A stretch of 64,000 bases of DNA from Candidatus Wildermuthbacteria bacterium (GTDB lineage: Bacteria > Patescibacteriota > Minisyncoccia > Minisyncoccales > UBA10102). The translations under genes were made by a program, and so were the position numbers. This document shows, one piece after another, positions 2,369 through 60,278 of this stretch (the first letter of the stretch is position 1; each line of letters begins with the position of its first letter). Under the pieces are notes generated by a model. That model did no database searches. It was given only the letters and a program-made list of their open reading frames with translations, and was not told the origin of the DNA. The stretch lies in assembly GCA_016186115.1 (NCBI GenBank), contig JACPMK010000003.1, positions 26,470-90,469 on the forward strand, given 5' to 3'.

Positions 2369-2791
2369 ATGGAGTTTCAGGTGCCACAATTCATTGAACG
2401 GGAAACAAAAATTGTAGGACCGCTCACCTTCAAACAATTCGGATTTATTGGGGGAGCTGGCGCTGTTATTTTCATTCTGTATTTTTTTGTAAAAATACCG
2501 CTCCTTTTTATTCCTCTTGCTCTTGCGGTTGCCGGGATCGGGCTTACGCTGGCATTCGTAAAGATCGGGGCAAAAACATTTCCTGAATTTCTCTTAAGCA
2601 TGCTACAATTTACCGCAGGCCCCAAAACATATATCTGGAGAAAGGGGCAGCTGGCGCAGAGCCAGCAGCAAAAGCAGCAAGCAAAGATTATCCCGCCCAA
2701 AAAAGATGAGGCGCCGGAAAAACCAAAATTCAATCTTACTACCAAAAGCAAGCTTCAAGACCTCTCCACCAAAGTAACGACGCAGGAATAA
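2369..2791 (+). CDS. PrgI / VirB3-like T4SS membrane protein
   Basis: N-terminal FIERETKIVGPLTFKQF motif followed by two TM helices, as in PrgI-family proteins. Located two genes upstream of a VirB4-like ATPase. Confidence 0.6.
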   Translation: MEFQVPQFIERETKIVGPLTFKQFGFIGGAGAVIFILYFFVKIPLLFIPLALAVAGIGLTLAFVKIGAKTFPEFLLSMLQFTAGPKTYIWRKGQLAQSQQQKQQAKIIPPKKDEAPEKPKFNLTTKSKLQDLSTKVTTQE

Positions 2792-2793
2792 AC

Positions 2794-3441: not shown

Positions 3442-3454
3442 TCCGAATCTACGA

Positions 3455-5233: not shown

Positions 5234-5237
5234 CGGC

Positions 5238-5678
5238 ATGGCGGAAGACGAACTTACGATTGAGAATCCCAATATGTCTCAACAAAAAACAGAAGGGGGC
5301 CAAGAGAAAGCCCGAGTGTCTCCCTTTGAGGTGGATTTTCTTTTGGTGTTTCTATTTGCGACCATTGTAGATGTAGTCGATATTATACTTGAAATTCTTT
5401 CTTTTCTTATCGTGCCGAAGCTCTTTGGAATTTTCCTTGATGCGGTTACTTTTGTCGGAATCACGTACTGGGTCTATCAAAAGACGAACAGGATTGAGAC
5501 GGCAAAAGAACGGGGTTTTCGAGGGTTATCCCCGCAAACAAAACGGCGATATCAGCGAAAAGCGCTTACAAAAGCGTTACGAAAGGTCGGGCTAACCTGC
5601 GCGGGAGAACTTATCCCATTTGTAGGACTAGTGCCCTTCTGGACCCTGCGCGTGCTTTCGACATTACGAGAAAAATGA
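5238..5678 (+). CDS. Small integral membrane protein (T4SS-like cluster)
   Basis: Track ORF with about three hydrophobic helices and a basic loop. No family recognised. Confidence 0.5.
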   Translation: MAEDELTIENPNMSQQKTEGGQEKARVSPFEVDFLLVFLFATIVDVVDIILEILSFLIVPKLFGIFLDAVTFVGITYWVYQKTNRIETAKERGFRGLSPQTKRRYQRKALTKALRKVGLTCAGELIPFVGLVPFWTLRVLSTLREK

Positions 5679-5691
5679 TACACTAAAAAAG

Positions 5692-6705
5692 ATGAGTATG
5701 AAGAAATTCTCCCTTCTCTTTTTTGCCCTTGGTTTATTTTTGCCCCTCACGAGCACAGCGTCTTTAAAACTTAATCTCTCTTATCCAAAATTTGGCGGAA
5801 TAGATCTTGAGAATAATCCGGGCCTGCAAGGCATTGTCTTGTGGATATACATTTTTATGATCGGCATTGCGGGGCTGGCCGCATTTCTTATGATTGTGTG
5901 GGGCGGAATTCAGTGGCTTTCTTCAGCGGGAAACCCGGCGCAAATTGGCGACGCAAAGGATAAAATTCAAAAGGCGCTGCTCGGTCTTTTATTAATTCTT
6001 TCCTCTGTGCTTATCTTAAACCTCATCAACCCCGAGCTAACCAATCTCCAAAGCCCATGGCTCCCCGCCCCCAAGCCGGTAGCATCCCAAGCACAAAATA
6101 ATGCTGCCCCCTTACCCGACATCCTCTTTAGAGTTGGCAGCGCTCAAAACGCTAGCGTCAAGCCGGGGGAGGATGTTACGTTGATTTGGGTCTCGAGTTA
6201 CTCTTCTTGCTCTGGCGAGAGCGACCCTCCCTTGTCGGAATGGCAAGGACCCGTTTCGCTCCCAAGTGGATCGAAGTTACTCACCATGACCGAAGAAGGA
6301 TTTTACAGGCTTATTCTTACCTGTTTTAAGGTTGGCTCGCCAATAATAGAGGAGATGGTTACCATTCGAGTTTCTTCTGCGCCTCCTCTACCTCCTGTTA
6401 ATCCTGCCGTTGAATTTCGTGCGTATAACCCAGCGACTGGAAACCCATACGCAAGCCCTATCGATGGAAAGGATGTTGTCAAAGATACAAATGGCTTTAT
6501 CAAATTTGCTTGGAGCTCTACGGGCGCGCATGAATGCGACGGAGAAAAAGAATTCTTCCTTGTGAATGGCCCGCCTATGGGAGAAAAATTAGTTGATATA
6601 TCTTCTCTTGCTTGGGGAGACCATCGCTATCGCATCCGTTGTACAAATAGAGATACTGGTGAAACAGTGCGCTCCGATGACATCATCGTTGAAATTTCGA
6701 AATAA
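5692..6705 (+). CDS. TrbC/VirB2-like T4SS pilin domain protein with a C-terminal repeat extension
   Basis: Signal-like start, then a hydrophobic hairpin with the GGIQWLSSAGNPAQIGDAKDKIQKALLGL motif typical of T4SS pilins. The C-terminal half has two Cys-containing modules (WVSSYSSCSGESD / AWSSTGAHECDGEKE). Confidence 0.55.
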   Translation: MSMKKFSLLFFALGLFLPLTSTASLKLNLSYPKFGGIDLENNPGLQGIVLWIYIFMIGIAGLAAFLMIVWGGIQWLSSAGNPAQIGDAKDKIQKALLGLLLILSSVLILNLINPELTNLQSPWLPAPKPVASQAQNNAAPLPDILFRVGSAQNASVKPGEDVTLIWVSSYSSCSGESDPPLSEWQGPVSLPSGSKLLTMTEEGFYRLILTCFKVGSPIIEEMVTIRVSSAPPLPPVNPAVEFRAYNPATGNPYASPIDGKDVVKDTNGFIKFAWSSTGAHECDGEKEFFLVNGPPMGEKLVDISSLAWGDHRYRIRCTNRDTGETVRSDDIIVEISK

Positions 6706-6710
6706 AAATG

Positions 6711-7178
6711 CTAGATACCGCTTCCCTTTGGCTTGATCACAATGCGGCGGTTGGGCTCTTCGCCCACGCTCTCTGAAGTGATGTCGGTGCGGTTGCTAAG
6801 TTCGGTGTGAATAATTCTGCGGTCAGCAGCAGACATGGGCGGAAGCTCTCTCTCGTATTTTAAGAGCGCAACTTCGTCTGCGGTGGTGCGCGCCAATTCC
6901 CGTAAATACAGTTCTTTATTTTTCCGATATTCATTGATATCGATTGCGATCCGGATATTTTCTCCGGTCTGCTTTTTTATTATCAACCGCAGAATATATT
7001 GAATATCGAGCAGCACCTTGCCCTGCTCTCCAATAAAAAGGTTGGGGTCTTCTGCCTTTATTTCTATTAGACAAACTCCTTCTTCGGGAGAGCTAACTTT
7101 TATTTGCCCTTCGAGCCCGAGTTTTTCAAAAAGCTCTTTTGCAATTCGCTCAATTGTCTGAAAAATATCATCGGTCAT
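6711..7178 (-). CDS. jag: Jag/SpoIIIJ-associated RNA-binding protein (KH + R3H)
   Basis: KH-like FIGEQGKVLLDIQYIL and R3H ADRRIIHTELS motifs. The ATG at 7178 overlaps the yidC stop as ATGA. The longer track start at 7232 was rejected. Confidence 0.8.
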   Translation of the reverse strand: MTDDIFQTIERIAKELFEKLGLEGQIKVSSPEEGVCLIEIKAEDPNLFIGEQGKVLLDIQYILRLIIKKQTGENIRIAIDINEYRKNKELYLRELARTTADEVALLKYERELPPMSAADRRIIHTELSNRTDITSESVGEEPNRRIVIKPKGSGI

Positions 7179-7912
7179 ACTTTTTTCGGTGTTTTGTGCT
7201 GCTGGTTTCTTGTGATAAACCAATACTGCCAAATGGAAAATGCGCTACTCACAGCCCAATAAAGAGAGATAACCGCGGGAAGGCGCGCTCCGATAAGCAC
7301 GATAACAACCGGGAAAACAAAAAGTGTTTGCGTCCGGAGCATAGAGGCAAAATCCGTTGCGCCCTTCTTTTTTGAATCGTCCTTTTTGGCTGGCATGGTC
7401 TGCTTTGCCTGAAAAAACTGAAGTATGCCTGCTGCGACAGCAAAAAATAAAGATTTCTGGGCCAGATCCATAAACCCCAAAAAGGAGGTATTGATGATGC
7501 CGGGCGTTGGCACGAAGGAGTATAAAAAAACAAGCTGTTCCGGGCCGAATCCTTTCCAGAAAAGTTGGTACAGGGCAATTAAAATAGGGAACTGGATAAG
7601 AAGGGGGAGTAAAGGGGAAAAGGGGTTAATCTTTTCTTTTCGATAAAACTCGAAAACAGCTTTTGCCTGCTGTTCTTTGTTGTCTTTGAATTTTTCCTGA
7701 ATTTCCTTAATCCTCGGCTGGAGCTCGGCAAACTTTTTCTGTGCGATCGCCGCTTTTGCGCTTAGCGGATACAAAACCAAACGCAGAAGTATGGTGAGAG
7801 CAATAACGGCCACCCCAAAATCCCTTCCGGGGAGATATTCGTAAAGCAAGATGAGAGCGTTGAGGAATGGCTGATACAAAAGGGTTCGAAAAAGTTCAAC
7901 AAAAAAATCCAT
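7175..7912 (-). CDS. yidC: Membrane protein insertase YidC
   Basis: YidC/Oxa1 core TM pattern in the conserved rnpA-yidC-jag order. Confidence 0.9.
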   Translation of the reverse strand: MDFFVELFRTLLYQPFLNALILLYEYLPGRDFGVAVIALTILLRLVLYPLSAKAAIAQKKFAELQPRIKEIQEKFKDNKEQQAKAVFEFYRKEKINPFSPLLPLLIQFPILIALYQLFWKGFGPEQLVFLYSFVPTPGIINTSFLGFMDLAQKSLFFAVAAGILQFFQAKQTMPAKKDDSKKKGATDFASMLRTQTLFVFPVVIVLIGARLPAVISLYWAVSSAFSIWQYWFITRNQQHKTPKKV

Positions 7913-7930
7913 AAGTTATTTCTTGATGCT

Positions 7931-8278
7931 CTATCTTCCCCTCAAAAGAAGATTCTGACGCATGAGCTTCAAAAGCCGTTCTTCTACCTGAACTTGCGTG
8001 AAGCTACGAAAATCGGGCGAAACAATCAAGACGATATCGAAACCATTGCGTATGAAGCCCAGATTTTTGCGCACAGCTTCGCGAATCAAGCGACGGAACC
8101 GATTACGCTTAGTTGCCTGCTTTGATACCTTTTTGCTCACCATAATGCCAAATCTCGAAACGTCCAGCCCATTTTCCCTTGCCCGTATTGTAAGGCCATT
8201 GGCTCGAGATACTCTGCTCTTCTGAAATACGAAGTCGAAATCTCTTTTTCGTCGAAGCCGAAAAGCGGGGGGAAGCAT
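7931..8278 (-). CDS. rnpA: Ribonuclease P protein component
   Basis: Basic 115-aa protein with LRRKRDFDFVF and KKVSKQATKRNRFRRLIRE motifs. Lies downstream of rpmH. Confidence 0.85.
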   Translation of the reverse strand: MLPPAFRLRRKRDFDFVFQKSRVSRANGLTIRARENGLDVSRFGIMVSKKVSKQATKRNRFRRLIREAVRKNLGFIRNGFDIVLIVSPDFRSFTQVQVEERLLKLMRQNLLLRGR

Positions 8279-30216: not shown

Positions 30217-31533
30217 ATGCGTGATATGAAAAGAATTTTAAAGAAGATCTTTCCTCCATTTATTTTGAGTTGGTACCATTTTGTATTGGCCTTTGTCGCG
30301 GCGGCGTGGTATCGGTTTCCCTCGAGAGATTTAACGGTGATTGGAGTTACGGGAACGAATGGGAAATCAACCACAGTCGATATGATCTCCCGAATTTTCG
30401 CAGAAGCAGGCATTGCGACTGCTTCTCTCTCTTCGATACGATTCCAAATCAACGAAAAGGAATGGCGCAATACGCTCAAGATGACAATGCCCGGCCCGTT
30501 TTTTGCGCAGAGATTTCTTCGCAAGGCAGTGAATGCCGGCTGCACGCATGCGGTGACGGAGGTAACTTCAGAAGGGATTCTTCAGTATCGCCACCGCTTT
30601 ATCAAATTTCATACGGCTGTGTTCACAAATTTGTCGCCCGAGCATATCGAACGGCATGGATCTTTCGAACATTATCGCCAAGCAAAAGGGGGACTATTTC
30701 AAGCCGCACAACAAGTGCATATTACGAATGGTGATGATAAAAATTCTGAATATTTTCTTCAATTTGCAGCCAGAGAAAAGTGGATATATGGTCTGAAAAA
30801 TTCGAAATCCGAAATTCGAAATCCGAAACAAATACCAAATACTAAATACCAAATATTAAATATTGAGAACATTCAAATAGAGCGAAACGGAGTAGAGTTT
30901 TTTGTAAAGGGTACTGAATTTCATCTCAAGCTCCTTGGGGAGTTTAACGCATATAACGCTTTGGCTGCAATTTGCGTTGGGCTTTCTCAAAATATTCCCT
31001 TAGAGACATGCAAAAACGCGCTCGAAAACATTGAAAAAGTGCCGGGCCGTATGGAACTGATTATCCAGAAGCCCTTTTGGGTATTTGTTGACTATGCTTT
31101 TACGCCCAATGCCCTAGAAAAAGTGTATCGGACCCTCAAAGAGTTGCAGCATATACCAAATACTAAATTGGTTTGCGTGCTCGGGGCTGCAGGCGGAGGG
31201 CGGGATAAATGGAAGCGGCCGGTATTGGGAAGGATTGCGGCATCGTATTGCGATAAAATTATTGTGACCAATGAAGATCCGTACGACGAAAATCCCACGG
31301 AAATCATTGAACAGGTGGCAGAAGGCGCCGGGGAAGAAGCAGAAAAAATCTTAGACCGCAGAGAAGCAATTGGAAAAGCATTGCACTTGGCGGGCTCGGG
31401 AGACGTCGTCGTGATAACGGGGAAGGGCAGCGAGGATTCTATTGATGTGGCCGGTGGCAAAAAAATTCCTTGGGATGATCGGGAAGTTGTTAGGGAGGAA
31501 TTTAGAAAAATCCATTCTCAAGAGACCGTATAG
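30217..31533 (+). CDS. Mur ligase family protein (MurE-like UDP-MurNAc-tripeptide synthetase) with N-terminal TM segment
   Basis: GVTGTNGKSTT P-loop, central and C-terminal Mur ligase motifs (GAAGGGRDKWKRP), hydrophobic N-terminus. Confidence 0.8.
   Translation: MRDMKRILKKIFPPFILSWYHFVLAFVAAAWYRFPSRDLTVIGVTGTNGKSTTVDMISRIFAEAGIATASLSSIRFQINEKEWRNTLKMTMPGPFFAQRFLRKAVNAGCTHAVTEVTSEGILQYRHRFIKFHTAVFTNLSPEHIERHGSFEHYRQAKGGLFQAAQQVHITNGDDKNSEYFLQFAAREKWIYGLKNSKSEIRNPKQIPNTKYQILNIENIQIERNGVEFFVKGTEFHLKLLGEFNAYNALAAICVGLSQNIPLETCKNALENIEKVPGRMELIIQKPFWVFVDYAFTPNALEKVYRTLKELQHIPNTKLVCVLGAAGGGRDKWKRPVLGRIAASYCDKIIVTNEDPYDENPTEIIEQVAEGAGEEAEKILDRREAIGKALHLAGSGDVVVITGKGSEDSIDVAGGKKIPWDDREVVREEFRKIHSQETV
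30798..30867 (+). repeat. Heptanucleotide-periodic tract (about 10 units) inside the MurE-like gene, in frame
   Basis: AAATTCG AAATCCG AAATTCG AAATCCG AAACAAA TACCAAA TACTAAA TACCAAA TATTAAA TATTGAG. Translated as NSKSEIRNPKQIPNTKYQILNIE. Confidence 0.85.
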
Positions 31534-46109: not shown

Positions 46110-47861
46110 ATGGTCCGAGTGGAAATTGAGAGATTAATCAAACAAGCACTTGAAGGCCTTCAAAAAGCGCACCAATTGGAGAATTTTGAGCTGGGCGAAA
46201 TTCCCTTGGAGCATCCGCAAAATCCAGAGCATGGGGATTATGCCACGAGCGTGGCCTTTGCATTGGCAAAGCAACTTGGCAAAAATCCAAGCGAAGCAGC
46301 TGAATTAATTGCTTCGCGTTTCACGCCTCGTGCTTCAGAAATTCTGGACGAGGTCAAGGCAGTTGGCGGCTTCGTGAATTTTTCCATCTCCAAAAAGTAT
46401 CTTTTCCAAGAGCTTAACGCCGTGATCCAGCAAAAAGAACAGTATGGAAAGATCGATTCGCTGAAGGGGAAAAAAATCATGGTGGAGTATGCTCATCCTA
46501 ATACTCATAAAGAAATGCATATTGGGCATATGCGCACTTTAATTACGGGTGAGGCCTTGGCCCGTATTCTTGGTTTGTGCGGGGCAAAGGTTTTCCGGGC
46601 AAATTATCAGGGAGACATCGGGCCGCATGTTGCCAAAGCAATTTGGGGTACGCAAAAGATTCTCAAAGAGCGCAACCTTACATGGGCAAAGGCAGAGAAA
46701 TTGAGTTTGAGCGATAGGGCGCATTTGCTTGGCGAGGGATACGTGAAGGGTAACAGGGAATACGAGGCAAATAAAGAAGAAATTGACGAACTCAATGCAA
46801 AGCTTTATCGGCGAGATACGAAAATAATGTCGATCTATCGGCAGACGCGCGAATGGAGCTTGGATTATTTTTCTGCAATCTATAAACAATTTGGCACGAA
46901 GTTCGACAAGCTCTATTTTGAGAGCCAAGTTGCAAGTATCGGGAAAAATATTGTTCTCAAAAATATCGGGAGAGTATTTGAAAAAAGCGAAGGCGCATTT
47001 ATTTTTGACGGCGAAAAATATGGCCTTCATAAGCGCGTGTTCATTACGCAAGACGGAAATCCTACGTACGAAGGAAAAGAAATGGGATTGGCTTTTGTGC
47101 AGCACAAAGACTTTCCTTTTGATCTCAATGTGCATGTGGTGGCGAACGAACAGACGGGATATTTCAAAGTGGTAATGAAGGCCCTCGAACTAATAGACAA
47201 GAAATTCGCAGGAAAGGAATATCACTTGCCCATGGGAATGGTGCAATTGGTCGGTCTTAAAATGTCTTCCCGTACAGGCGTTGTGATTACGGTGGATGGG
47301 TTGCTCGTCCAAGTACAAGATGCGTTGCAAAAATTGATTACGAATAGGAAGCTTTCTCAAAAAGAAAAAAAACGGATTGCAGAAATAGGAGCGATGGCTG
47401 CCGTAAAGTATTCGATACTCAAAACAGATACAAAATCCAATGTAGTATTCGATATGAAAAAATCTGTGAGTTTGGATGGGGACTCTGGCCCGTATCTTCT
47501 TTATACGTATGCGAGGTGTAGAAGTATATTAAGAAAAGCACGAAATTCGAAATTCGAAATTCGAAATAAATCCCAAATTTTAAATTCAAAATTCTCAAAA
47601 GAAGAACTCGATGTTTTGCGAACGATTTATAAATTTCCCGAAGTGGTCAGAGAGGCGGCAGAGAAATTTTCACCAAGCATTATTTGCAGCTATATTTTTG
47701 ATGTGGCGCAAAAATACAATCTTTTTTACCATACGTCCCCCGTGTTGCAGGCAGAGACAAAAGAGCAAAAAGCATTTCGTCTTCTGCTCACCGGAGCAGT
47801 TGCCCAATTGATCAAAAATAGTTTATCCCTCTTGGGCATCCAAACTCTGGAGCGAATGTAA
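46110..47861 (+). CDS. argS: Arginyl-tRNA synthetase
   Basis: HPNTHKEMHIGH (HIGH), MSSRTG (KMSK-type), and a C-terminal DALR anticodon-binding domain ending in M. Confidence 0.95.
   Translation: MVRVEIERLIKQALEGLQKAHQLENFELGEIPLEHPQNPEHGDYATSVAFALAKQLGKNPSEAAELIASRFTPRASEILDEVKAVGGFVNFSISKKYLFQELNAVIQQKEQYGKIDSLKGKKIMVEYAHPNTHKEMHIGHMRTLITGEALARILGLCGAKVFRANYQGDIGPHVAKAIWGTQKILKERNLTWAKAEKLSLSDRAHLLGEGYVKGNREYEANKEEIDELNAKLYRRDTKIMSIYRQTREWSLDYFSAIYKQFGTKFDKLYFESQVASIGKNIVLKNIGRVFEKSEGAFIFDGEKYGLHKRVFITQDGNPTYEGKEMGLAFVQHKDFPFDLNVHVVANEQTGYFKVVMKALELIDKKFAGKEYHLPMGMVQLVGLKMSSRTGVVITVDGLLVQVQDALQKLITNRKLSQKEKKRIAEIGAMAAVKYSILKTDTKSNVVFDMKKSVSLDGDSGPYLLYTYARCRSILRKARNSKFEIRNKSQILNSKFSKEELDVLRTIYKFPEVVREAAEKFSPSIICSYIFDVAQKYNLFYHTSPVLQAETKEQKAFRLLLTGAVAQLIKNSLSLLGIQTLERM
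47543..47598 (+). repeat. Heptanucleotide-periodic tract (about 8 units) inside argS, in frame
   Basis: AAATTCG x3, then AAATAAA TCCCAAA TTTTAAA TTCAAAA TTCTCAA. Translated NSKFEIRNKSQILNSKFSK in a variable linker of ArgRS. Confidence 0.85.
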
Positions 47862-47942: not shown

Positions 47943-48401
47943 ATGAAAATAAAAAGTACATCAATATTATGCGATAGGATAAAATTGATGTACAACGCTT
48001 TTTATCGGTTGCGCAAAGAGGGCTGCATTTATATCGAACGGCGCAACAATCAAATTTTTATTTCTCTCACCGAAAAAGGAAGAAGGAAAGCCGGACGGTT
48101 TTAGATTGATAGCTTGAAAATTAAAAAGCCAAAGCAATGGGATAGAAAATGGCGCTTGATTATGTTTGATATTGCACAGCTCCATCTTTTCAAGAGAAAC
48201 GCGCTCCGAGGAATTCTAAAACGACTGCAATTTTATCAACTTCAGAAAAGTATTTGGATTCATCCTTTTGATTGCCAGGATGAGTTCGATCTTCTGAAGG
48301 ATTTTTTCGGTTTGACCGTTAGGGAGATGAGATTTGTGGTTGCCAATGATATTGGGGACGATCAATCTTTGCGTACAATGTTTAAGTTGCAAACTGTTTG
48401 A
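47943..48401 (+). pseudogene. PaaX-like small regulator (wHTH + PaaX_C/Cas2-like fold) interrupted by an in-frame TAG
   Basis: ATG at 47943 or 47988 gives ...MYNAFYRLRKEGCIYIERRNNQIFISLTEKGRRKAGRF, then TAG (48102-04), then IDSLKIKKPKQWDRKWRLIMFDIAQ... in the same frame. The track only calls 48114..48401. Confidence 0.5.
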
Positions 48402-48433: not shown

Positions 48434-51400
48434 ATGGAAGTTAATTTTCCGAAGCTGGAGGAAAGAATATTAAAGCATTGGAAGGCGATTAGGGCATTTG
48501 AAAAATCGGTACAAATGCGAAGGGGATCGCCTCGTTTTGTTTTTTACGAAGGTCCTCCCACAGCCAATGGCGCCCCGGGCATCCATCACGTGCTTTCCCG
48601 TGCCTTTAAAGATATTATTCTGCGCTACAAAACCATGGCTGGATTTTACGTTGAGCGAAAAGCTGGCTGGGATACGCATGGTCTCCCCGTGGAATTGCAA
48701 ATTGAAAAAAAACTTGGATTGAAGTCAAAAAAGGATATCGAGAAATACGGCATCGCGAAATTCAATGCAGAGTGCAAAAAATCTGTCTGGGAATACAAGA
48801 AAGAATGGGAAAGTTTAACAGAGCGCATCGGATTTTGGCTCGACATGGAGCATCCCTACATCACTTATGAAACTCCATATATCGAAACTCTGTGGTCAAT
48901 TATTAAACAGTACTGGCAAAAGGGATTGCTCTATAAAGATTACAAGGTTGTGCCTTATTGTCCGCGCTGCGGCACTTCGCTTTCTTCTCATGAGCTAGCC
49001 CAAGGGTATAAAACCGTAAAAGAACCCTCGGTATATGTAAAATTCAAAATTCGAGCGGAAGATTTTCTTAAACTACCGACTACTAACCATAAACTACAAA
49101 CTGTTTATCTTTTGGCGTGGACTACAACTCCATGGACCCTGCCTTCGAATGTGGCATTGGCCGTCCATCCGGATATCTCTTATGTGGTTGCCAAACTCAA
49201 TAATGAGCATTACATCGTTGCACAAGAACGGGCAAAGCATGTGCTCGGCGAGACCTATGAAATTGCAGAAACGCTAAGGGGGAGCGATTTGGTGGGGGTT
49301 TCTTATGTCCCCCTATATCAATTTGAGCAGAGTGAAAAAGGGAAAAAAGTGTGGGAAGTAGTTCCTGCGGATTTTGTATCAACCAAAGAAGGCACCGGCA
49401 TCGTGCATACCGCAGTGGCCTATGGAGTTGATGATTTTGAGCTGGGCAAAAAACAGAATCTTGCAATGTTTCATTTCGTAACAGAAGAAGGAAAATTTCA
49501 TGACAAGGTAAAACCATTTGCCGGACTTTTTGTAAAAGATGCCGATCCCTTGATTATGGAAGATTTGAAAAAGCGCAGTACTCTTTTCAAAGAAGAGCTC
49601 TATGAGCATGAGTATCCTTTTTGCTGGAGATGCGACACGCCCCTGTTGTATTACGCGAAAGAGAGTTGGTTTTTGAATATGCAAAGGGTAAAAGATCAGT
49701 TGCTGGCGAACAATGAAAAAATTCATTGGATTCCTGCGTATATTAAGGAAGGGAGATTTGGCGAATGGCTTAAAGAGGTACGCGACTGGGCGTTTTCGAG
49801 AGAAAGATATTGGGGTACGCCCTTGCCTATCTGGCAATGCAAAGGATGCGTCCATCAAGAAACAATCGGCTCTCTCGATGATTTGAGGAAACAAAAATTC
49901 TCAACAAATACCTATTATATATTGCGTCATGGTGACTCCGAACGCCAGAAAACAAACGTCATGTCTTCTTGGCCAGAGAAAAAGCCATTACCCCTTACCT
50001 CAAGAGGAGTACGTGAAATTCAGGCGAGAGCAAAACAATTAAAAAAGAAAAAAATTGATTTCATTTTTTCTTCAGATATACTTCGAACGCAGCAAACCGC
50101 AGAAATCATAGGCAAAGAATTGGGCATTGCGCCAATTTTTGATAAGCGTTTGCGAGAGTGGGATATGGGCATATTGAATGGCAAGCATATCAAAGAATAC
50201 GGAAAAATGTTCGGCAGAAAAGGCGAGACCGCTTTGGAGCATTACCTGCGTAGATTTGAGGAGCCCGTACCAAAAGGAGAAAGCTGGAAAGATGTGCAGA
50301 AGCGATTGTATGGTTTGCTGCAAGAGCTTGAGAAAAAGTATGACGGGAAAACAGTTCTTGTTATCGGCCACGAGTTGCCGCTTACGCTTTTGGAGGGTCT
50401 TGCGAAGGGATTGTCGAGAGAAGAAGTTATCAAATTCCGGGAGAAAAAAGCATTGCATACCGCAGAATTGCGCAAGTTGTCAGTAACCCTGCTTCCTTAT
50501 AACGATGATATGGAAGTGGATCTTCATCGCCCCCACATCGATGCCGTTACTTTTTTTTGTTCTCAATGCGGCAAGCAAATGGAACGAGTAAAAGATGTGG
50601 TGGATGTATGGTTTGATTCTGGGGCAATGCCCTTTGCGCAAAATCCGAAATTCGAAATCCGAAATCCGAAATTAGCGCCTCCGGCGCTGTATCCGGCGGA
50701 TTATATTGTGGAGGGAATTGATCAAACACGGGGATGGTTTTATACCTTGCTTGCAATCGCCACGTTATTGGGTTTTGGCACGCCTTTTCGAAACGCAATT
50801 TCCTTGGGTCATATTCTGGATGAAAAGGGGGAAAAGATGTCCAAGACCAAAGGCAACGTGGTAAGCCCTTGGGATATGATTTCAAAGTATGGAGCAGATG
50901 CAGTGCGATGGTATTTCTATACCATGAATCATCCCGGAGACCCAAAATTATTTTCTGAAAGGGATATTCAGCAGACGCTTCGAAAATTCCTTTTTACGCT
51001 TTGGAATTCTTTTGTTTTTTATCAAATGTATAAACCTTCTTCCAATGCGAAGATTCCTGTCAAAATTCAAACCAGCCATATTCTTGATCGCTGGATTCTT
51101 TCGCGACTGCAATTGCTTATTGAGGAGATGACGAAACGCATCGATTCCTATGACGTCACAGGGGCGGCAAGAGCGCTGGAAGGTTTTGCGATCGATGATT
51201 TTTCACTTTGGTATATCCGAAGATCGCGTGTAAGATTTCAGAATCCAAGTTCTCCAAGAGAAAAACAAGAGGCGCTTACAACATTGCAGTATACTCTGGC
51301 GGAAGTAGCGAAGCTGGCAGCTCCTTTCGTGCCCATGATTAGCGAACATATCTATCAGGAACTTCAGCAGAAACGCAGCTCTTCTATGCAAAGTGTTCAC

Positions 51401-51949
51401 TGGAAAGATTGGCCGAAGTCCCAGCGGCAGTTTCGTAATCTGCCCCTTGAAGAAGAAATGAACAAGGCGCGAGAGGTCGTTGCCAAGGCGCTTGCCGAAC
51501 GCGCAAAAGCAGGGATCAAGGTGCGCCAGCCCCTCGCTTTGCTGAAAATCCGAAATCCGAAATCCGAAGTTCCAAACGAATTACTCAACGTAATTAAGGA
51601 TGAGGTGAATGTGAAAGAAGTTGTGTTTGATAAAAATCTCAAGGCAGAGGTTGAGTTGGATACGCGCCTCACTCCAGCGCTGAAAGAAGAAGGGATGCTG
51701 CGGGATATTCTGCGTTCCATACAGGATATGCGAAAAACAGCGGGGTACAAGCCACGGCATTCCATTGTGCTTAGTTTTGCCGGAGATGTTTTTCTTGGGC
51801 AGCTCTTGTTAAAGAACAGGATGGTGTTGAAGCGGGGCGTGGGAATAAAAAAGTTTATCCAGGGAGAAAAACCAAAGCATGTATTTGATATCGAACGCGA
51901 ATTTGAAATGGAAGGCAAGAGAATTTGGCTCGGCATAAAAAAAGCATAG
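48434..51949 (+). CDS. ileS: Isoleucyl-tRNA synthetase (type 2-like) with an inserted histidine-phosphatase domain
   Basis: PPTANGAPGIHHV (HIGH region), GWDTHGLP, WTTTPWTLPSN, CP1 editing region, KMSKTKGN, DQTRGWFY. ATG at 48434 (MEVNFPKLEE). Confidence 0.95.
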   Translation: MEVNFPKLEERILKHWKAIRAFEKSVQMRRGSPRFVFYEGPPTANGAPGIHHVLSRAFKDIILRYKTMAGFYVERKAGWDTHGLPVELQIEKKLGLKSKKDIEKYGIAKFNAECKKSVWEYKKEWESLTERIGFWLDMEHPYITYETPYIETLWSIIKQYWQKGLLYKDYKVVPYCPRCGTSLSSHELAQGYKTVKEPSVYVKFKIRAEDFLKLPTTNHKLQTVYLLAWTTTPWTLPSNVALAVHPDISYVVAKLNNEHYIVAQERAKHVLGETYEIAETLRGSDLVGVSYVPLYQFEQSEKGKKVWEVVPADFVSTKEGTGIVHTAVAYGVDDFELGKKQNLAMFHFVTEEGKFHDKVKPFAGLFVKDADPLIMEDLKKRSTLFKEELYEHEYPFCWRCDTPLLYYAKESWFLNMQRVKDQLLANNEKIHWIPAYIKEGRFGEWLKEVRDWAFSRERYWGTPLPIWQCKGCVHQETIGSLDDLRKQKFSTNTYYILRHGDSERQKTNVMSSWPEKKPLPLTSRGVREIQARAKQLKKKKIDFIFSSDILRTQQTAEIIGKELGIAPIFDKRLREWDMGILNGKHIKEYGKMFGRKGETALEHYLRRFEEPVPKGESWKDVQKRLYGLLQELEKKYDGKTVLVIGHELPLTLLEGLAKGLSREEVIKFREKKALHTAELRKLSVTLLPYNDDMEVDLHRPHIDAVTFFCSQCGKQMERVKDVVDVWFDSGAMPFAQNPKFEIRNPKLAPPALYPADYIVEGIDQTRGWFYTLLAIATLLGFGTPFRNAISLGHILDEKGEKMSKTKGNVVSPWDMISKYGADAVRWYFYTMNHPGDPKLFSERDIQQTLRKFLFTLWNSFVFYQMYKPSSNAKIPVKIQTSHILDRWILSRLQLLIEEMTKRIDSYDVTGAARALEGFAIDDFSLWYIRRSRVRFQNPSSPREKQEALTTLQYTLAEVAKLAAPFVPMISEHIYQELQQKRSSSMQSVHWKDWPKSQRQFRNLPLEEEMNKAREVVAKALAERAKAGIKVRQPLALLKIRNPKSEVPNELLNVIKDEVNVKEVVFDKNLKAEVELDTRLTPALKEEGMLRDILRSIQDMRKTAGYKPRHSIVLSFAGDVFLGQLLLKNRMVLKRGVGIKKFIQGEKPKHVFDIEREFEMEGKRIWLGIKKA
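49069..49103 (+). repeat. Heptanucleotide-periodic tract in ileS (TAAACTA type)
   Basis: TAAACTA CCGACTA CTAACCA TAAACTA CAAACTG, translated LKLPTTNHKLQT just before WTTTPWTLP. Shares the 14-mer ATAAACTACAAACT with 61785-61798. Confidence 0.75.
49900..50510 (+). other. Histidine phosphatase (phosphoglycerate-mutase-like, branch 1) domain embedded in IleRS
   Basis: YYILRHGDSERQ (RHG motif), SSDILRTQQTAEII, DKRLREWDMGILNG, PKGESWKDVQKRL, VLVIGHELPL. Inserted between ...ETIGSLDDLRKQKF and DLHRPHID.... Confidence 0.8.
50641..50675 (+). repeat. Heptanucleotide tandem repeat in ileS (AAATYCG x5)
   Basis: AAATCCG AAATTCG AAATCCG AAATCCG AAATTAG, translated NPKFEIRNPKLA. Confidence 0.85.
51546..51573 (+). 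repeat. Heptanucleotide tandem repeat in ileS (AAATCCG x3 + 1 degenerate)
   Basis: AAATCCG AAATCCG AAATCCG AAGTTCC, translated KIRNPKSEVP. Confidence 0.85.
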
Positions 51950-51951
51950 CC

Positions 51952-52719
51952 ATGGGATTTTCTCATTATCGAACCCAAGCAGTTGTTCTGGCGAGTCAGG
52001 ATCGGGGAGAGGCGGATCGGATATTCCATTTGTATACCAAGGACTTTGGAAAATTGAGAGCGTGGGCGATTTCGGAGCGAAAAATAACTTCCAAGCTCCG
52101 GGGGGGATTGGAGCCGTGGGGTCATTCTGAAGTCGAATTCATCGAGGGAAGAAACAGAAAAATTATTGTGGATACTGCTTCCCTTCATCGCTATCAAGCA
52201 ATACGGAACAATATAGAGAAAATACGATGCGCAGGGAGAGTTGTTTCTGCGCTTGACTCTCTTTGCAAAGAAGAAATTCCAGAGCAGCATATTTGGTTTT
52301 TCCTCTTGCATGTTTTGCAAATATTAGATACAGAAGAAAGAGAACAATGGGATTTTGAGCTGGTGTATTTTTATTTTCTCTGGAATATTTTTTCCTTGCT
52401 TGGGTACCAGCCCTTTCTGGAGGCGTGCAAAAATTGCAAGAGGGCTGTCGATCTTGAGAAGACGTATTTTTTCTTTTCGGAAGGCGGGATTCTGTGCCGG
52501 GATTGCACAAAGAAGAAGAATATTGCGCGAGCGCTTTCGCAAAAAATTGCCATTGAGCTTTCCCCCTTTCTCTTGCAAACAATGCGAGCGCTGACGAACC
52601 AAAAGATGGGCGAGAACAATTTGAATGCAATTTCCATGGCCTCGCAGGAGCGTTCTTTGTTAGAAGAATTATCTTCGCGCTACACTGCTCAATTGAGTGT
52701 CTATTCCTATGAATCCTAA
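51952..52719 (+). CDS. recO: DNA repair protein RecO
   Basis: N-terminal OB fold (AVVLASQDRGEADRIFHLYTKDFGKL) and a zinc-finger CKNC...CRDC. The ATG at 51952 lies just after the ileS stop. Confidence 0.85.
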   Translation: MGFSHYRTQAVVLASQDRGEADRIFHLYTKDFGKLRAWAISERKITSKLRGGLEPWGHSEVEFIEGRNRKIIVDTASLHRYQAIRNNIEKIRCAGRVVSALDSLCKEEIPEQHIWFFLLHVLQILDTEEREQWDFELVYFYFLWNIFSLLGYQPFLEACKNCKRAVDLEKTYFFFSEGGILCRDCTKKKNIARALSQKIAIELSPFLLQTMRALTNQKMGENNLNAISMASQERSLLEELSSRYTAQLSVYSYES

Positions 52720-58117: not shown

Positions 58118-58788
58118 TGGGCACTCTTTTTATTGTCGCCACACCAATCGGCAATCTCGAAGATATTACTCATCGGGCGCTTCGCGTATTGCGCCAAGCA
58201 GATTTTATCTTATGCGAAGATACAAGGGTTACCAAGAAATTGCTCGATCATTACGGAATTGCAACTCCAACGTTGAGCTATCATCAACACAGCACTCCAG
58301 AGAAGATGAGCTATGTTTTTGGTCTTTTATCTACTGGAAAGAATATCGCATTGGTTTCTGATTCCGGAACTCCCGGAATTGCAGACCCCGGCAATGAACT
58401 CATCGAATTTTTGCTCCAGAAAAATCCCGGAATAAACATAGCTCCTATTCCTGGCCCTTCTGCGGTCGCCGCAATCGCAAGCATTTCTGGGTTTCCAACG
58501 AATTCCTTTTTATTCTTGGGATATCCGCCGAGTAAAAAAGGCAGAAAGAAATTTTTTGAGAAAGTTGCAGAGTCGCAATGCCCAGTGATTTTCTACGAGT
58601 CGCCCTACCGGATTATAAAAACTCTGCAGCAGTTGCAGGAGTTAAGCCCAGAGGTATATGCGGTAGTGGGCAGGGAACTTACCAAACAATTCGAAACAAT
58701 CTCCCGCGGCCCTATTGACCAAGTGCTCCAAATAATGCAGAAAGATAAGGTAAAAGGAGAATTTGTGGTAATTGTATACAACCAATGA
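58117..58788 (+). CDS. rsmI: 16S rRNA (cytidine1402-2'-O)-methyltransferase
   Basis: LFIVATPIGNLEDIT, CEDTR, DSGTPGIADPG, and a tetrapyrrole-methylase fold pattern. Confidence 0.9.
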   Translation: MGTLFIVATPIGNLEDITHRALRVLRQADFILCEDTRVTKKLLDHYGIATPTLSYHQHSTPEKMSYVFGLLSTGKNIALVSDSGTPGIADPGNELIEFLLQKNPGINIAPIPGPSAVAAIASISGFPTNSFLFLGYPPSKKGRKKFFEKVAESQCPVIFYESPYRIIKTLQQLQELSPEVYAVVGRELTKQFETISRGPIDQVLQIMQKDKVKGEFVVIVYNQ

Positions 58789-60278
58789 ACAAAAAATTCT
58801 ATATCACAACTGCAATTCCCTATGTGAATGCCCGCCCGCACATCGGGCATGCTTTGGAATTTATTCAGGCCGATGTCATTGCGCGCTACCATCGTCTGAA
58901 GGGTGAGGAGGTTTTGCTTTTGTCTGGAAGCGATGAGAATGCGCTTAAAAATGTTCAAGCCGCCCAGAGCGCCGGAGTCCCTGTGCAGCAATTTATTGAT
59001 GAAAACGCCGTGCTTTTTGTCGAGTTGGCCAATGCGCTTGGCGTGCAATTCGACGTATTTCAAAAGGGAAGCAGCAAAGAACACCATCTCTCCAGTCAGA
59101 AACTGTGGCAACTTTGCGCCGAAAATGGGGATATCTACAAAAAATCCTACGAAGGTTTGTACTGCACGGGATGCGAAGCATTTTATACTCCAGATGAGCT
59201 TGATGCGAATCAGGAATGCCTTGAGCATCCCGGCCGAAAACTCGAGAGCGTCTCCGAAGAAAATTATTTTTTCAAACTTTCACGATATCAGGACAAAATC
59301 ATTAGTGTATTGGAAAGCGATGAATTGGAAATTGTTCCCGCGACCCGAAAAAATGAAATGCTCGCTTTTTTGAAACAGACACTGCAAGATATTAGCATTT
59401 CGCGCACCAATGAACGCGCCAAAAATTGGGGCGTGCCAGTTCCGGCCGATGATTCTCAAAGAATGTATGTTTGGTTCGATGCCCTCAATATGTATCAGTC
59501 GGGAGTTGGATTTGGATTAGATGAACAAAAGCATAACAAGTGGTGGCCGGCAGATATTCATGTGATTGGCAAGGGGATTATTCGTTTTCACGCGGTGTAC
59601 TGGCCGGCATTTCTTTTGTCGGCTGGGTTGCCTTTGCCCAAGAAAATCTTTGTTCATGGCTATATCACTTCAAGCGGACAAAAAATGTCAAAGACACTGG
59701 GAAATGTGGTTGATCCTTTTCCGCTTGTCGAAAAATATGGAAGTGGTGCAGTACGTTACTTTTTCTTGCGCGAAATTCCGCCGACAGAAGACGGCGATTT
59801 TTCCTATGAAAAATTCGAAGAGAGGTATAATTCTGACCTTGCGAGTGGTTTGGGAAATCTTGTCGCGAGAGTACTCGCGCTTGTAGGAAAAATAAATCCG
59901 AAATCCTTTGACAAGCTCAGAATCCCGAGCGAAGTCGAGGGACAAATTCAAAGTCCAAAACTGCGGGAAATTATAAATGCAGCGAGAGAAAAGGTGGATA
60001 CGGCGTTGGAAAAGTTTCAGTTTCAGGATGCGTTGATTGCCATTTGGGATGTGATTCATTTTTGCGACAGATATATTGAGGAGAAAAAACCGTGGTCTTT
60101 CGACTTCGCTCAAGATAAACCCGATCAAAAAGAAGTAATCGACGATTTATTGCTAGCAATTTTAGCAATCGGCACGCTTCTCAAGCCATTTCTCCCCGCG
60201 ACTTCAGAGAAAATAGCGAATCAATTGCAACATGGAAAAGGCGATCCTCTCTTCCCGCGTCTTGACAGAAATGTATGA
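58785..60278 (+). CDS. metG: Methionyl-tRNA synthetase (short form)
   Basis: PYVNARPHIGH (HIGH), KMSKTLGN, zinc knuckle CTGCEAF, C-terminal anticodon-binding helices. Confidence 0.95.
   Translation: MNKKFYITTAIPYVNARPHIGHALEFIQADVIARYHRLKGEEVLLLSGSDENALKNVQAAQSAGVPVQQFIDENAVLFVELANALGVQFDVFQKGSSKEHHLSSQKLWQLCAENGDIYKKSYEGLYCTGCEAFYTPDELDANQECLEHPGRKLESVSEENYFFKLSRYQDKIISVLESDELEIVPATRKNEMLAFLKQTLQDISISRTNERAKNWGVPVPADDSQRMYVWFDALNMYQSGVGFGLDEQKHNKWWPADIHVIGKGIIRFHAVYWPAFLLSAGLPLPKKIFVHGYITSSGQKMSKTLGNVVDPFPLVEKYGSGAVRYFFLREIPPTEDGDFSYEKFEERYNSDLASGLGNLVARVLALVGKINPKSFDKLRIPSEVEGQIQSPKLREIINAAREKVDTALEKFQFQDALIAIWDVIHFCDRYIEEKKPWSFDFAQDKPDQKEVIDDLLLAILAIGTLLKPFLPATSEKIANQLQHGKGDPLFPRLDRNV
59894..59941 (+). 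repeat. In-frame composite insertion in metG: two AAATCCN heptamers plus an imperfect palindrome
   Basis: AAATCCG AAATCCT, then CCTTTGAC (59905-12) / GTCGAGGG (59934-41) pairing with two G-U, and an inner GCTC/GAGC. Translated NPKSFDKLRIPSEVEG. Confidence 0.55.

Follow-up and report, generated by a model that had tools for sequence, protein, structure and literature searches.

A histidine phosphatase domain nested in the CP3 zinc knuckle of a type-2 isoleucyl-tRNA synthetase: the fused state of a conserved two-gene module of Parcubacteria

Few enzymes have been studied as thoroughly as aminoacyl-tRNA synthetases, and domains added to them usually point to extra functions. We describe here an isoleucyl-tRNA synthetase (IleRS) of Candidatus Wildermuthbacteria whose CP3 zinc knuckle accommodates a histidine phosphatase domain (HP) between its two CxxC halves. 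Many lineages of Parcubacteria have this HP-in-IleRS architecture as a rule, and HP and IleRS form a conserved module of Parcubacteria that exists in a two-gene form as well as in the fused form seen here. HP is apparently a complete, catalytically competent phosphatase inside IleRS, and on balance we lean towards regarding the protein as two enzymes in one polypeptide, with HP as a working phosphomonoesterase coupled to the machinery of tRNA charging and maturation.

The gene lies in a 64-kb stretch of DNA (hereafter the window), where it is the single ileS and no other IleRS match was found. Its reading frame is open throughout, starting at a TTG (48398; 1183 aa) or an ATG (48434; 1171 aa) and ending at 51949, which agrees with the uninterrupted frame that a sequence-only reading of the window had reported from the ATG. 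The 1171-aa product is 100% identical to a deposited NCBI protein (P0001) from a 236-kb contig of a Candidatus Wildermuthbacteria MAG. The locus and the hallmarks of the synthetase are as follows:

46110..47861, + strand: argS (arginyl-tRNA synthetase), upstream member of the argS-[HP]-ileS-recO cluster (ORF list)
48114..48401, + strand: small ORF of 95 aa in the argS-ileS interval with a PaaX_M Cas2-like domain (Pfam PF20803, E 8e-16)
48434..51949, + strand: ileS, type-2 isoleucyl-tRNA synthetase of 1171 aa with nested HP (ORF list, TIGR00392)
48578..48589, + strand: non-canonical class-I signature G49-I-H-H52, GXHH instead of HXGH (motif search)
49022..49633, + strand: CP1 editing domain, ca. 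aa 197-400 (motif search and structure matches)
50834..50848, + strand: KMSKT, the second class-I signature loop, of KMSKS type (motif search)
51925..52719, + strand: recO, downstream member of the cluster (ORF list)

The protein scores 886.9 bits against the NCBIfam ileS model TIGR00392 (cut-off 621.4) in two stretches that flank the insert, and the Pfam domain tRNA-synt_1 is likewise broken into two stretches. Its best PDB matches are Thermus thermophilus IleRS (1ILE) and Priestia megaterium IleRS2 (8C8U-8C9D), with E-values of 1e-258 to 1e-250 compared to 1e-106 for P. megaterium IleRS1, and Foldseek searches with the predicted structure also ranked IleRS2 first (TM 0.91 for 1ILE, 0.80 for 8C8V). 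With these enzymes, which represent the eukaryote-like, mupirocin-resistant type 2, it shares the full domain set and motifs, including the zinc-binding CP3 of Thermus IleRS. A DUF5915 domain lies at its C-terminus, in line with the type-2 organisation of this end. Both class-I signature loops are conserved, with G49 and H51 as well as K801, M802, S803, and K804 invariant among 69 homologs. The GXHH form places the enzyme with the G/AXHH subgroup of hyper-resistant IleRS2, in which this mupirocin hyper-resistance motif is a functional variant (PMC10485003). The CP1 editing motifs WTTTPWT (229), GTGIVH (320), and GVDD (331) are intact, and structures of isolated IleRS editing domains (1WK8, 1UE0) match aa 191-395. 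Scores against the models of the acquired mupirocin-resistance enzymes MupA/MupB, NF000257 and NF000258 (844 and 830 bits, cut-off 1900), and against the model of IleRS with a GNAT domain (NF040702; 346 bits, cut-off 1999) remain far below threshold, and Pfam detects no GNAT domain. As read from its sequence, the host is thus a complete type-2 IleRS that has the GXHH and KMSKT signatures, an intact editing site in CP1, and both zinc sites, along with its anticodon-binding and C-terminal domains.

What sets the window protein apart from 1ILE and P. megaterium IleRS2 is that its CP3 zinc-knuckle loop carries ca. 207 additional residues, a second and predicted catalytic domain:

49838..49849, + strand: first half of the CP3 zinc knuckle, C469-K-G-C472, directly before the insert (homolog alignment)
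49895..50515, + strand: extra segment compared with Thermus IleRS, aa 488-694 (interrupted alignment with 1ILE)
49916..50440, + strand: His_Phos_1 match, aa 495-669, the core of HP (Pfam PF00300)
49925..49933, + strand: R498-H499-G500, the RHG motif with the predicted nucleophilic histidine (direct sequence reading)
50084..50086, + strand: R551, second phosphate-binding arginine in an SSDILRT motif (homolog alignment)
50156..50158, + strand: E575 in an RLRE motif, likely general acid (homology to dPGM Glu89)
50369..50371, + strand: H646, second active-site histidine in a VIGHE motif (homolog alignment)
50558..50569, + strand: second half of the CP3 zinc knuckle, C709-S-Q-C712, shortly after the insert (homolog alignment)

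The alignment with 1ILE breaks at aa 487 of the query (479 of 1ILE) and resumes at aa 695 (488 of 1ILE), so that the insert stands in place of ca. 8 residues; the sequence-only reading had placed ca. 200 residues at about 49900-50510, close to the measured extent, and had expected them to replace a loop of ca. 15 aa. When aligned to insert-less IleRSs of two related loci (L001 and L004), the protein shows a gap exactly at this position. The inserted segment consists of an N-terminal linker, the entire phosphatase domain, and a conserved C-terminal linker (..LPYNDDME). All four knuckle cysteines (C469, C472, C709, C712) are invariant among 120 homologs, and the region of C709-S-Q-C712 aligns with the C-A-C of 1ILE, in keeping with the zinc motif of Thermus-type CP3. 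HP is not part of the catalytic body, where it had at first been placed, and belongs to CP3, a peripheral zinc-knuckle subdomain outside the catalytic core whose structure varies more than that of any other part of IleRS. The linker preceding it (CP2-3) lines the pocket for tRNA A76 and reveromycin.

An AlphaFold2 model of the full-length protein (pLDDT 87.5, pTM 0.80) has high local scores for HP (pLDDT 91-97) and both linkers (92-94). In this model, the first and last beta-strands of HP would enter and exit IleRS via two short, well-ordered linkers, which should leave the synthetase fold intact. The GC content of the insert (0.39-0.47) is the same as that of its flanks, and no meaningful repeats were found flanking the junctions. 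The heptamer tract that had been pointed out downstream of the insert is present as (AAATCCG)4.6 at 50641-50672. We do not count it as a component of the feature because this repeat is a separate element, present at four sites of the window, and at this one it encodes a disordered loop.

The identification of the insert as a branch-1 histidine phosphatase is robust at the levels of profile, fold, and catalytic core. PF00300 is detected with 116.7 bits in the whole protein (E 1.3e-33) and, in the very check that the sequence-only reading had recommended, with 121.5 bits in the insert alone (E 4.7e-35), far above the Pfam gathering score of 21.7. All motifs quoted at the outset are found (RHG at nt 49925-49933, SSDILRTQQTAEII, RLREWDMGILNG, PKGESW, and VLVIGHELPL), and the RHG histidine, the second arginine, the second histidine, and an acidic proton donor of branch 1 are all in place. 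We amend this list of active-site residues in one respect: the proton donor is likely E575 in the RLRE motif, beside the conserved GES glutamate E616. E575 matches Glu89 of cofactor-dependent phosphoglycerate mutases (dPGMs), which we take from the family literature to be their general acid.

R498, H499, R551, and H646 are invariant in 120 of 120 homologs, while the position of E575 is occupied by glutamate in 106 and by aspartate in 14 of them. We extended this comparison to 226 HP copies of all contexts (118 embedded, 84 free-standing, and 24 in tandem). H499 is kept in 223 of these, the three losses all falling among the embedded copies; R551 and H646 are each kept in 225, and E575 is E or D throughout. 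The full catalytic set is thus present in >98% of copies, including every copy of a tandem array, and free-standing copies are conserved as well as embedded ones. Conservation of the insert is on a par with that of other IleRS domains: its mean identity is 51%, that of CP1 57%, and that of the anticodon/C-terminal part 49%. Judged by this conservation, the catalytic residues are under selection, and HP would probably be an active enzyme.

A model of the domain alone (pLDDT 90.7, pTM 0.88) adopts the alpha/beta phosphoglycerate-mutase-like fold, and its Foldseek matches are phosphatases of ca. 200 aa (TM 0.74-0.79 for PspA, HFP, GpgP, and PhoE, i.e., 0.79 for PspA [4IJ5], 0.78 for PhoE [1H2E], and 0.74 for HFP [9MMH]). 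Profile searches against the PDB agree, with PhoE (1e-31), PspA (5e-29), and CobC (6e-25) all ranking above dPGMs. The nearest relatives of HP in sequence and fold are therefore small phosphatases and not true mutases. HP resembles PhoE/YhfR of Geobacillus stearothermophilus (1H2E, 1EBB) and the phosphoserine phosphatase PspA of Hydrogenobacter (4IJ5) in size (ca. 190-210 aa), fold, and the RHG...R...E...H set, and in the same respects the alpha-ribazole phosphatase CobC (6NRU, 6E4B), the riboflavin-pathway phosphatase HFP (9MMH), and GpgP (Rv2419c; 4PZ9). Sequence identity to these small branch-1 phosphatases is just 21-26% (profile E-values of 1e-31 to 1e-21), and unlike HP none of them sits inside an aminoacyl-tRNA synthetase or is linked to one in the genome. 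None of the NCBIfam equivalog cut-offs is reached by HP, e.g., neither that of the CobC model TIGR03162 (76.6 bits, cut-off 162.9) nor that of the PspA model NF045917 (67.7 bits, cut-off 350).

The genomic distribution of HP shows that its association with ileS extends well beyond the fused form. PF00300 is present in all 120 of the closest database homologs (54-63% identity, from many independent contigs and sources). A profile scan of species-representative genomes confirmed 380 relatives, and the best 80 of these 380 loci were kept; all except one are labelled as Patescibacteria or unclassified bacterium MAGs. HP is linked to ileS or the argS-ileS cluster in 80 of these 80 loci: it is nested at the identical CP3 site in 49 and encoded as a free-standing protein of ca. 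190 aa in 31, lying in the argS-ileS interval wherever both flanks are on the contig, and no locus among the 80 has both forms. This answers the survey of related IleRS architectures that had been suggested, and it reveals a context invisible to the sequence-only reading, i.e., that sister lineages carry the same HP as a separate gene adjoining ileS. Four loci (L001, L004, L005, and L006) have such free-standing relatives (40-51% identity) directly upstream of an insert-less ileS. The linkage spans IleRS lineages that are just 37-43% identical. In most related loci, argS homologs lie upstream of HP or ileS, and genes at the position matching recO carry RecO_N and RecO_C. The 95-aa ORF of the window fills the slot that the free-standing HP gene occupies in sister lineages. 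Judged by eye, its sequence resembles genes lying between HP and ileS in L052 and L053.

No simple N-terminal HP-IleRS fusion was seen in the kept loci, though the two genes often abut or overlap. Tandem arrays of two to four HP copies exist, as does a second HP insertion site within IleRS, and such extra copies are added inside IleRS and not elsewhere. We searched the interval between HP and ileS for a conserved partner or kinase and found none, the intervening genes being heterogeneous. Every bootstrap neighbour-joining tree requires at least five transitions between nested and free-standing HP, which does not support a single insertion event. Recombination of the syntenic locus could mimic repeated state changes; either way, CP3 nesting recurs or spreads.

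Proteins of this architecture are already deposited in NCBI, UniRef, and JGI, where automatic annotation gives them generic labels, e.g., "class I tRNA ligase family protein" and "isoleucine--tRNA ligase". The rarity implied by the sequence-only reading thus does not hold, since many Parcubacteria carry the architecture, though we found no published description of it in open-access papers and bioRxiv. The same reading had offered a common and already annotated architecture as grounds against its claim, and of these two the first applies, while the annotation consists of generic automatic names.

Rare other hosts of the HP subfamily are ArgRS (three clusters, one of them in two independent samples), TsaC (four clusters, neighbored by genes for CCA-adding enzyme, TGT, Q-salvage, and TruD), and a QueC-like protein, and we therefore reject a specificity of HP for IleRS alone. 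TsaC is a promiscuous fusion hub in these organisms, with MGMT, TruB, 2H/CPDase, NUDIX, GNAT, and MPG domains as other partners, so that economy of genes, and not a common chemistry, may account for fusions in such small genomes. In the C-terminal ArgRS fusion, HP presumably lies far from the ArgRS active site, given the general structure of ArgRS. Together with the free-standing forms, this argues that a precise geometry at the IleRS active site is not required.

In having an extra globular domain inserted or appended while the synthetase is preserved, the HP-bearing IleRS resembles IleRS-GNAT (NF040702) and the INS editing insertion of ProRS. The inserted domains known from aminoacyl-tRNA synthetases either are acetyltransferases or have aminoacyl-adenylate or aminoacyl-tRNA as their substrate, and to our knowledge no phosphatase has been reported among them. 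A small His_Phos_1 phosphatase joined to a nucleic-acid enzyme is also seen in mycobacterial RnhC/Rv2228c (RNase HI and a CobC-like acid phosphatase), whose model NF005567 matches the insert at 75 bits, below its cut-off of 326. Unlike the nesting of HP, that fusion is C-terminal, has another host enzyme, and occurs in another phylum. Its two domains are reported to show "functional disassociation" (PMC7466739).

In the reading that we favor, a phosphatase working alongside the synthetase, H499 would accept the phosphoryl group to form a phospho-enzyme intermediate, R498, R551, and H646 would hold this group, and E575 would protonate the leaving group. HP would thereby dephosphorylate a substrate that is of nucleotide type or linked to tRNA and that either supplies or inhibits the enzymes of charging and maturation. 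This substrate class and the functional coupling of HP to the synthetase are put forward tentatively.

It is also conceivable, if rather unlikely, that HP is a passenger housekeeping enzyme, i.e., an ordinary metabolic phosphatase without any mechanistic link to aminoacylation that resides in a constitutively expressed synthetase operon and was captured by a permissive IleRS surface loop in many lineages, with substrates such as phosphoserine, the riboflavin intermediate ARPP, or sugar/glycerate phosphates. Its nearest solved relatives (PspA, HFP 9MMH, GpgP Rv2419c, CobC, and PhoE) are indeed metabolic phosphatases with diverse substrates, 31 of the 80 kept loci encode HP on its own, CP3 is peripheral and variable, unrelated genes are often fused in these bacteria (TsaC-MGMT and others), and the inclusion of recO makes the operon functionally mixed. 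However, a mere passenger would hardly be expected at ileS/argS in all of the best 80 loci across IleRS lineages of 37-43% identity, and all other fusion partners found are tRNA-related enzymes that convert ATP to PPi. Furthermore, the trivial N-terminal fusion is not seen in the kept loci while CP3 nesting recurs or spreads, and additional HP copies are placed within IleRS only. Service of HP to central metabolism is unlikely.

A more specific role in tRNA metabolism, which we consider quite doubtful, would be healing of tRNA 3' ends: HP would free the terminal adenosine of a 2'/3'-phosphate or pyrophosphate, and the synthetase would then charge a tRNA that it otherwise rejects. HP would be tethered on CP3 beside the A76 pocket or supplied as a partner from the adjacent gene, and blocked ends might come from ribonuclease damage or from toxSAS-type toxins, which block aminoacylation via pyrophosphorylation of the CCA end. 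If true, this would be a hitherto unknown "substrate repair" role of aminoacyl-tRNA synthetases that is widespread in a major bacterial radiation.

Improbable in our view is a non-catalytic HP that senses a phosphorylated ligand and tunes IleRS, as could be imagined from its position adjoining the linker that lines the A76 pocket, the rigid linkers of the AlphaFold2 model, and the loss of H499 in three of 118 embedded copies. Pseudo-enzymes typically lose nucleophile and general acid residues, whereas the catalytic set including both is retained in >98% of the 226 copies, in all tandem copies, and to an equal degree in free-standing ones. We give slightly less credence still to HP being the glycolytic cofactor-dependent phosphoglycerate mutase of the organism fused to IleRS. 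The top NCBIfam match is the archaeal short dPGM model NF038349, but its 90.1 bits fall short of the cut-off of 225, as do the 41.3 bits against TIGR01258 (cut-off 81.7). Phosphatases also outrank dPGMs in profile and fold searches, and alignments to true dPGMs show an rmsd of ca. 8 Å and length mismatches. These sub-threshold scores and the closer small-phosphatase relatives make a true mutase unlikely.

IleRS, ArgRS, TsaC, and QueC-like enzymes all turn ATP into an AMP-linked intermediate and PPi, which could suggest a tethered pyrophosphatase that clears PPi from such hosts. This is highly improbable because four genomes (L048, L070, L074, and L085) have an ordinary family-I ppa gene, whose product shares 49-51% identity with E. 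coli Ppa, directly upstream of the HP-bearing ileS, and we know of no branch-1 histidine phosphatase acting as a pyrophosphatase. Finally, an assembly chimera, hidden frameshift, or mobile insertion such as an intein, for which only the prior suspicion towards any 200-aa insert in a MAG speaks, can be practically dismissed, since hundreds of independent contigs, obtained from different samples and with different assemblers, share the same junctions, the reading frame is open throughout, composition is uniform across insert and flanks, flanking repeats are missing, and Pfam finds neither Hint/splicing nor homing-endonuclease domains.

A second, apparently active catalytic center thus sits within an essential synthetase, and a large group of uncultivated bacteria maintains the phosphatase with the synthetase, whether as one fused protein or as neighboring genes. 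Many of these HP-bearing IleRS proteins are currently annotated merely as "class I tRNA ligase family protein". The CP3 zinc knuckle emerges as an IleRS site that tolerates a cargo of 200 to 800 residues, which may be useful in engineering. Very small genomes retain little without need, and the retention of HP with the synthetase in such genomes therefore poses a concrete question, i.e., which phosphorylated molecule matters for tRNA charging or maturation.

In the window, ileS runs without interruption through a segment of branch-1 histidine phosphatase (hereafter HP, for the nested domain and its free-standing relatives alike), and the 1171-aa frame from ATG 48434 described in the sequence-only reading is borne out:

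48398 (TTG) or 48434 (ATG) to 51949, + strand: ileS open reading frame, 1183 aa or 1171 aa, respectively
48578 to 48589: class-I HIGH signature in the swapped form GIHH, aa 49-52 of the IleRS

A database search matched the 1171-aa product at 100% identity to a deposited protein encoded on a Candidatus Wildermuthbacteria MAG contig of 236 kb, where it bears only the name 'class I tRNA ligase family protein'. Pfam recognizes His_Phos_1, Anticodon_1, DUF5915 and a class-I synthetase catalytic domain divided into two stretches, and the NCBIfam ileS equivalog scores 887 bits (cut-off 621); the proposed phosphatase domain inside an IleRS is confirmed. Motif searches located the GIHH signature, KMSKT at 801, the editing motifs WTTTPWT, GTGIVH and GVDD, and both zinc sites; the host IleRS is intact, and no other ileS lies within the 64-kb window. 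Since G49 and H51 are invariant across 69 homologs and the G/AXHH variant confers mupirocin hyper-resistance on type-2 IleRS (PMC10485003), the whole clade is predicted to be hyper-resistant. A class-I synthetase ORF of ~500 aa at 58749-60275, weakly matching the IleRS C-part (E 1e-13), is probably MetRS, which with argS and ileS gives at least three synthetase genes in 15 kb.

The alignment to Thermus thermophilus IleRS (1ILE) stops at residue 487 (1ILE 479) and restarts at 695 (1ILE 488), so that ~207 residues (nt 49895-50515) stand in place of ~8, and not of the roughly 15-aa Thermus loop given in the sequence-only reading. Within this insert, the profile search detects His_Phos_1 at aa 495-669 (E 1.3e-33), and every phosphatase motif quoted from the sequence was found again. 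GC content is unchanged across the insert, and no repeats flank it at the junctions. On either side lie CKGC (469-472) and CSQC (709-712), which together form a zinc knuckle; its four cysteines are all invariant in 120 homologs. In yeast IleRS, the CP2-3 linker 'ARDWNVSRNRYWG', with 'VRDWAFSRERYWG' as its counterpart here, lines the pocket for tRNA A76 and reveromycin, and CP3 comes next; CP3 topology varies among Candida, Thermus and Staphylococcus IleRS, with the zinc motif in the Thermus type only. Because of these flanks and the position and variable topology of CP3, the insertion site, indeed internal to the IleRS as first read, is not in the catalytic body or Rossmann core but in a peripheral, structurally plastic subdomain adjoining the pocket for the tRNA 3' end.

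R498, H499, R551 and H646 of the insert are invariant in 120 homologs, and E616, the 'GES' glutamate, is also conserved. Residue 575 ('RLRE'), which we take to be the probable general acid from homology to Glu89 of cofactor-dependent phosphoglycerate mutase (dPGM), is Glu in 106 of them and Asp in the other 14. More than 98% of 118 embedded, 84 free-standing and 24 tandem copies retain the catalytic set, H499 being lost in only 3 of the 118 embedded ones, and relative to the query the insert averages 51% identity, the editing domain 57% and the anticodon-binding and C-terminal part 49%. HP thus appears to be selected as an enzyme, and we infer with good support that it would be a catalytically active phosphomonoesterase working via a phospho-H499 intermediate.

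A full-length AlphaFold2 model (69 homologs; pLDDT 87.5, pTM 0.80) superposes its IleRS body on type-2 structures (TM 0.91 on 1ILE, 0.80 on P. megaterium IleRS2), and the insert is its best-predicted part (block means 91-97, both linkers 92-94). Modelled alone (pLDDT 90.7), HP finds as its top fold matches phosphatases of ~200 aa: PspA (4IJ5, TM 0.79), GpgP Rv2419c (TM up to 0.79), PhoE (1H2E, TM 0.78) and the riboflavin-pathway histidine-family phosphatase 9MMH (TM 0.74). Profile searches of the PDB likewise rank PhoE (1e-31), PspA (5e-29) and CobC (6e-25) above true mutases, and the window protein reaches none of the NCBIfam equivalog cut-offs for dPGM, CobC, PspA or GpmB. HP is a full member of the branch-1 superfamily, small-phosphatase-like and not assignable to any characterised enzyme.

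Tandem heptamer arrays, (CGAAATY / AAATCCG)n, are a separate matter. They are confined to the + strand (12 pattern matches vs 0.85 expected):

30798 to 30862, + strand: tandem heptamer array
47541 to 47593, + strand: array inside argS
50641 to 50672, + strand: array inside ileS, the tract already noticed downstream of the insert
51546 to 51568, + strand: array inside ileS

A run of three units (21 nt) is translated as peptides of the 'RNPKSEI' type (NPKFEIRNPKL, KIRNPKSEV, SKFEIRNKSQI). The tract at 50641 encodes aa 738-745, the one stretch where the pLDDT of the IleRS model drops below 50, and related peptides (PKSEIQNPK, KSDIRDQK) occupy this hypervariable loop in homologs; the tract has no connection with the phosphatase insert. 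In the close homolog P0002, a long low-complexity repeat, GQALRLGS x4, follows 'MPFAQ' in the loop aligned to aa 736-747, a loop that seems to accumulate repeat expansions in general.

Each of the 120 best relatives in the databases, drawn from NCBI, JGI, ENA and Logan assemblies (54-63% identity, 1120-1240 aa), carries PF00300; those with names are Wildermuth-, Yanofsky-, Nealson- and Pacebacteria and other Parcubacteria. When one genome per GTDB species was scanned for a peptide pattern taken from HP, at least 599 matches and 380 confirmed relatives emerged. The best 80 of these bear the labels of Patescibacteria groups or of unclassified bacterium MAGs, except for one 1.3-kb contig labelled Caldimicrobium, and include a complete 647-kb Nealsonbacteria chromosome. 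So many relatives rule out the chimeric assembly or hidden frameshift that had been considered, and the architecture, initially thought rare, is common and not unique. An exhaustive search with the insert alone against 1.84 billion representative proteins returned 11,881 matches; among the best 150 are 79 whole or fragmentary IleRS hosts, 65 free-standing proteins (~180-215 aa, 40-51% identity to the insert) and 6 others. Some IleRS gene calls are N-terminally shortened to recurrent lengths of ~750 aa (P0141, P0146, P0156, P0256), ~860 aa (P0161, P0167, P0236) and ~920-980 aa (P0154, P0164, P0177, P0188, P0202), starting at similar points, e.g., 228 aa in, inside the CP1 editing domain; contig ends, gene-calling artefacts, split genes or recoding could account for them.

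In two related loci (L001, L004), an HP gene lies 8-10 nt upstream of an ileS without insert, in the order argS-HP-ileS-(x)-recO that matches the synteny of the window, and on two short contigs (L005, L006) the ORF after HP opens with an IleRS N-terminus. Among the best 80 of the 380 loci, HP is nested in 49, where the match to the IleRS N-part stops 2-3 residues before HP and that to the C-part restarts 2-3 after it, and free-standing in 31; none has both forms. Of the free-standing genes, 17 abut or overlap ileS, 10 have one or two variable genes before it (gaps 597-1906 nt) and the other 4 lack an ileS downstream, mainly at contig ends; argS is directly upstream wherever the contig covers that flank. 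The insert-less IleRS beside free HP are 40-43% identical to that of the window and 37% to one another, and their CP3 loop is short precisely at the insert position. In a neighbour-joining tree of the IleRS body, one deep clade is all free-standing and the remainder mixed, with 5-8 state changes required in 60/60 bootstrap trees vs 15-25 for shuffled labels, and the HP tree interleaves both forms, a pattern that could reflect either repeated nesting and excision or recombinational exchange of whole syntenic loci. The easiest route to an HP-IleRS fusion is stop-codon loss between abutting genes; no simple N-terminal fusion was seen among the loci and proteins examined. The window arrangement is the fused form of a two-gene HP-ileS module. 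Between argS and ileS, its 95-aa ORF (48114-48401) carries a PaaX_M Cas2-like domain (E 8e-16) and by eye resembles the longer genes between free-standing HP and ileS in two loci (L052, L053). One clade (L048, L070, L074, L085, ~3040-3530) has a family-I inorganic pyrophosphatase gene in the slot held elsewhere by argS or HP.

HP is also multiplied (P0143, P0238/P0271/P0272, P0230, P0160, P0250, P0213, P0227, including free-standing double-domain proteins): CP3 holds two tandem copies in P0238 and P0230 and four in P0143, and P0160 and P0250 have a second copy past the KMSKS region, right before the anticodon-binding domain. Every copy in these proteins keeps the catalytic set. Locus L077 has two adjacent HP-bearing ileS genes (1449-4994 and 4998-8042), the second of a type (~1015-1030 aa; also P0205, P0273) without CP1 and with its two CP-core CxxC motifs just ~25 residues apart, which looks like an editing-less paralog retaining HP. 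Elsewhere, HP is fused to the ArgRS C-terminus (three clusters; smpB-argS::HP-recO on two independent 70-kb contigs with ileS elsewhere), to TsaC/Sua5 (four clusters, among genes for CCA-adding enzyme, TGT, queuosine salvage and TruD) and once to a QueC-like PP-loop protein near a preQ transporter gene and ThiF. All four hosts are tRNA-related and form an AMP-linked intermediate and PPi from ATP. In these Patescibacteria, TsaC/Sua5 (P0277-P0390) serves as a fusion hub, the majority of copies being joined to MGMT (PF01035) and others to TruB, 2H/cyclic-phosphodiesterase, NUDIX, GNAT, methylpurine glycosylase (MPG) or histidine phosphatase; with so many partners, fusion by itself is weak evidence for shared chemistry.

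Both parts are of known kinds, the IleRS being type-2 with the G/AXHH signature of a known subgroup and the phosphatase a small branch-1 member of its superfamily, and accessory domains in synthetases have precedent in an NCBIfam model for IleRS with a GNAT domain, which the window protein does not match. On the phosphatase side, the nearest analogue comes from mycobacteria: RnhC/Rv2228c combines an RNase HI with a CobC-like phosphatase, and its halves likewise lack an established functional link (PMC7466739). Open-access and bioRxiv full texts yielded no description of a phosphatase nested in an aminoacyl-tRNA synthetase or of a conserved HP-ileS/argS module, and neither appears in the two most relevant papers on IleRS evolution; public databases already contain the HP-bearing IleRS proteins, with domains matched automatically, and these are therefore not categorically new.

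As to function, the main rival, a passenger metabolic phosphatase captured in a permissive IleRS loop, is unlikely, though a real contender. Considerably less probable is that HP would remove a terminal 2'/3'-phosphate or pyrophosphate from tRNA: CP3 adjoins the A76 pocket, and such blocked ends are natural because toxSAS toxins pyrophosphorylate the CCA end and so block aminoacylation, but HP also exists free-standing and as a C-terminal fusion to ArgRS, so that no fixed geometry is required. An ordinary ppa gene (49-51% identity to an E. coli Ppa probe) directly upstream of HP-bearing ileS in four genomes makes a built-in pyrophosphatase unlikely, and a glycolytic mutase is unlikely from the profile and fold results. 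On a single polypeptide, the IleRS and the active site of the histidine phosphatase are both intact, and this arrangement is conserved, phosphatase and synthetase staying genomically together across a large radiation. The near-universal ileS/argS linkage, the identity of the other hosts, the recurrent nesting in CP3 and the extra copies inside IleRS lend moderate support, with chances about even, to a role of HP that would be tied to tRNA charging or maturation and not to central metabolism.
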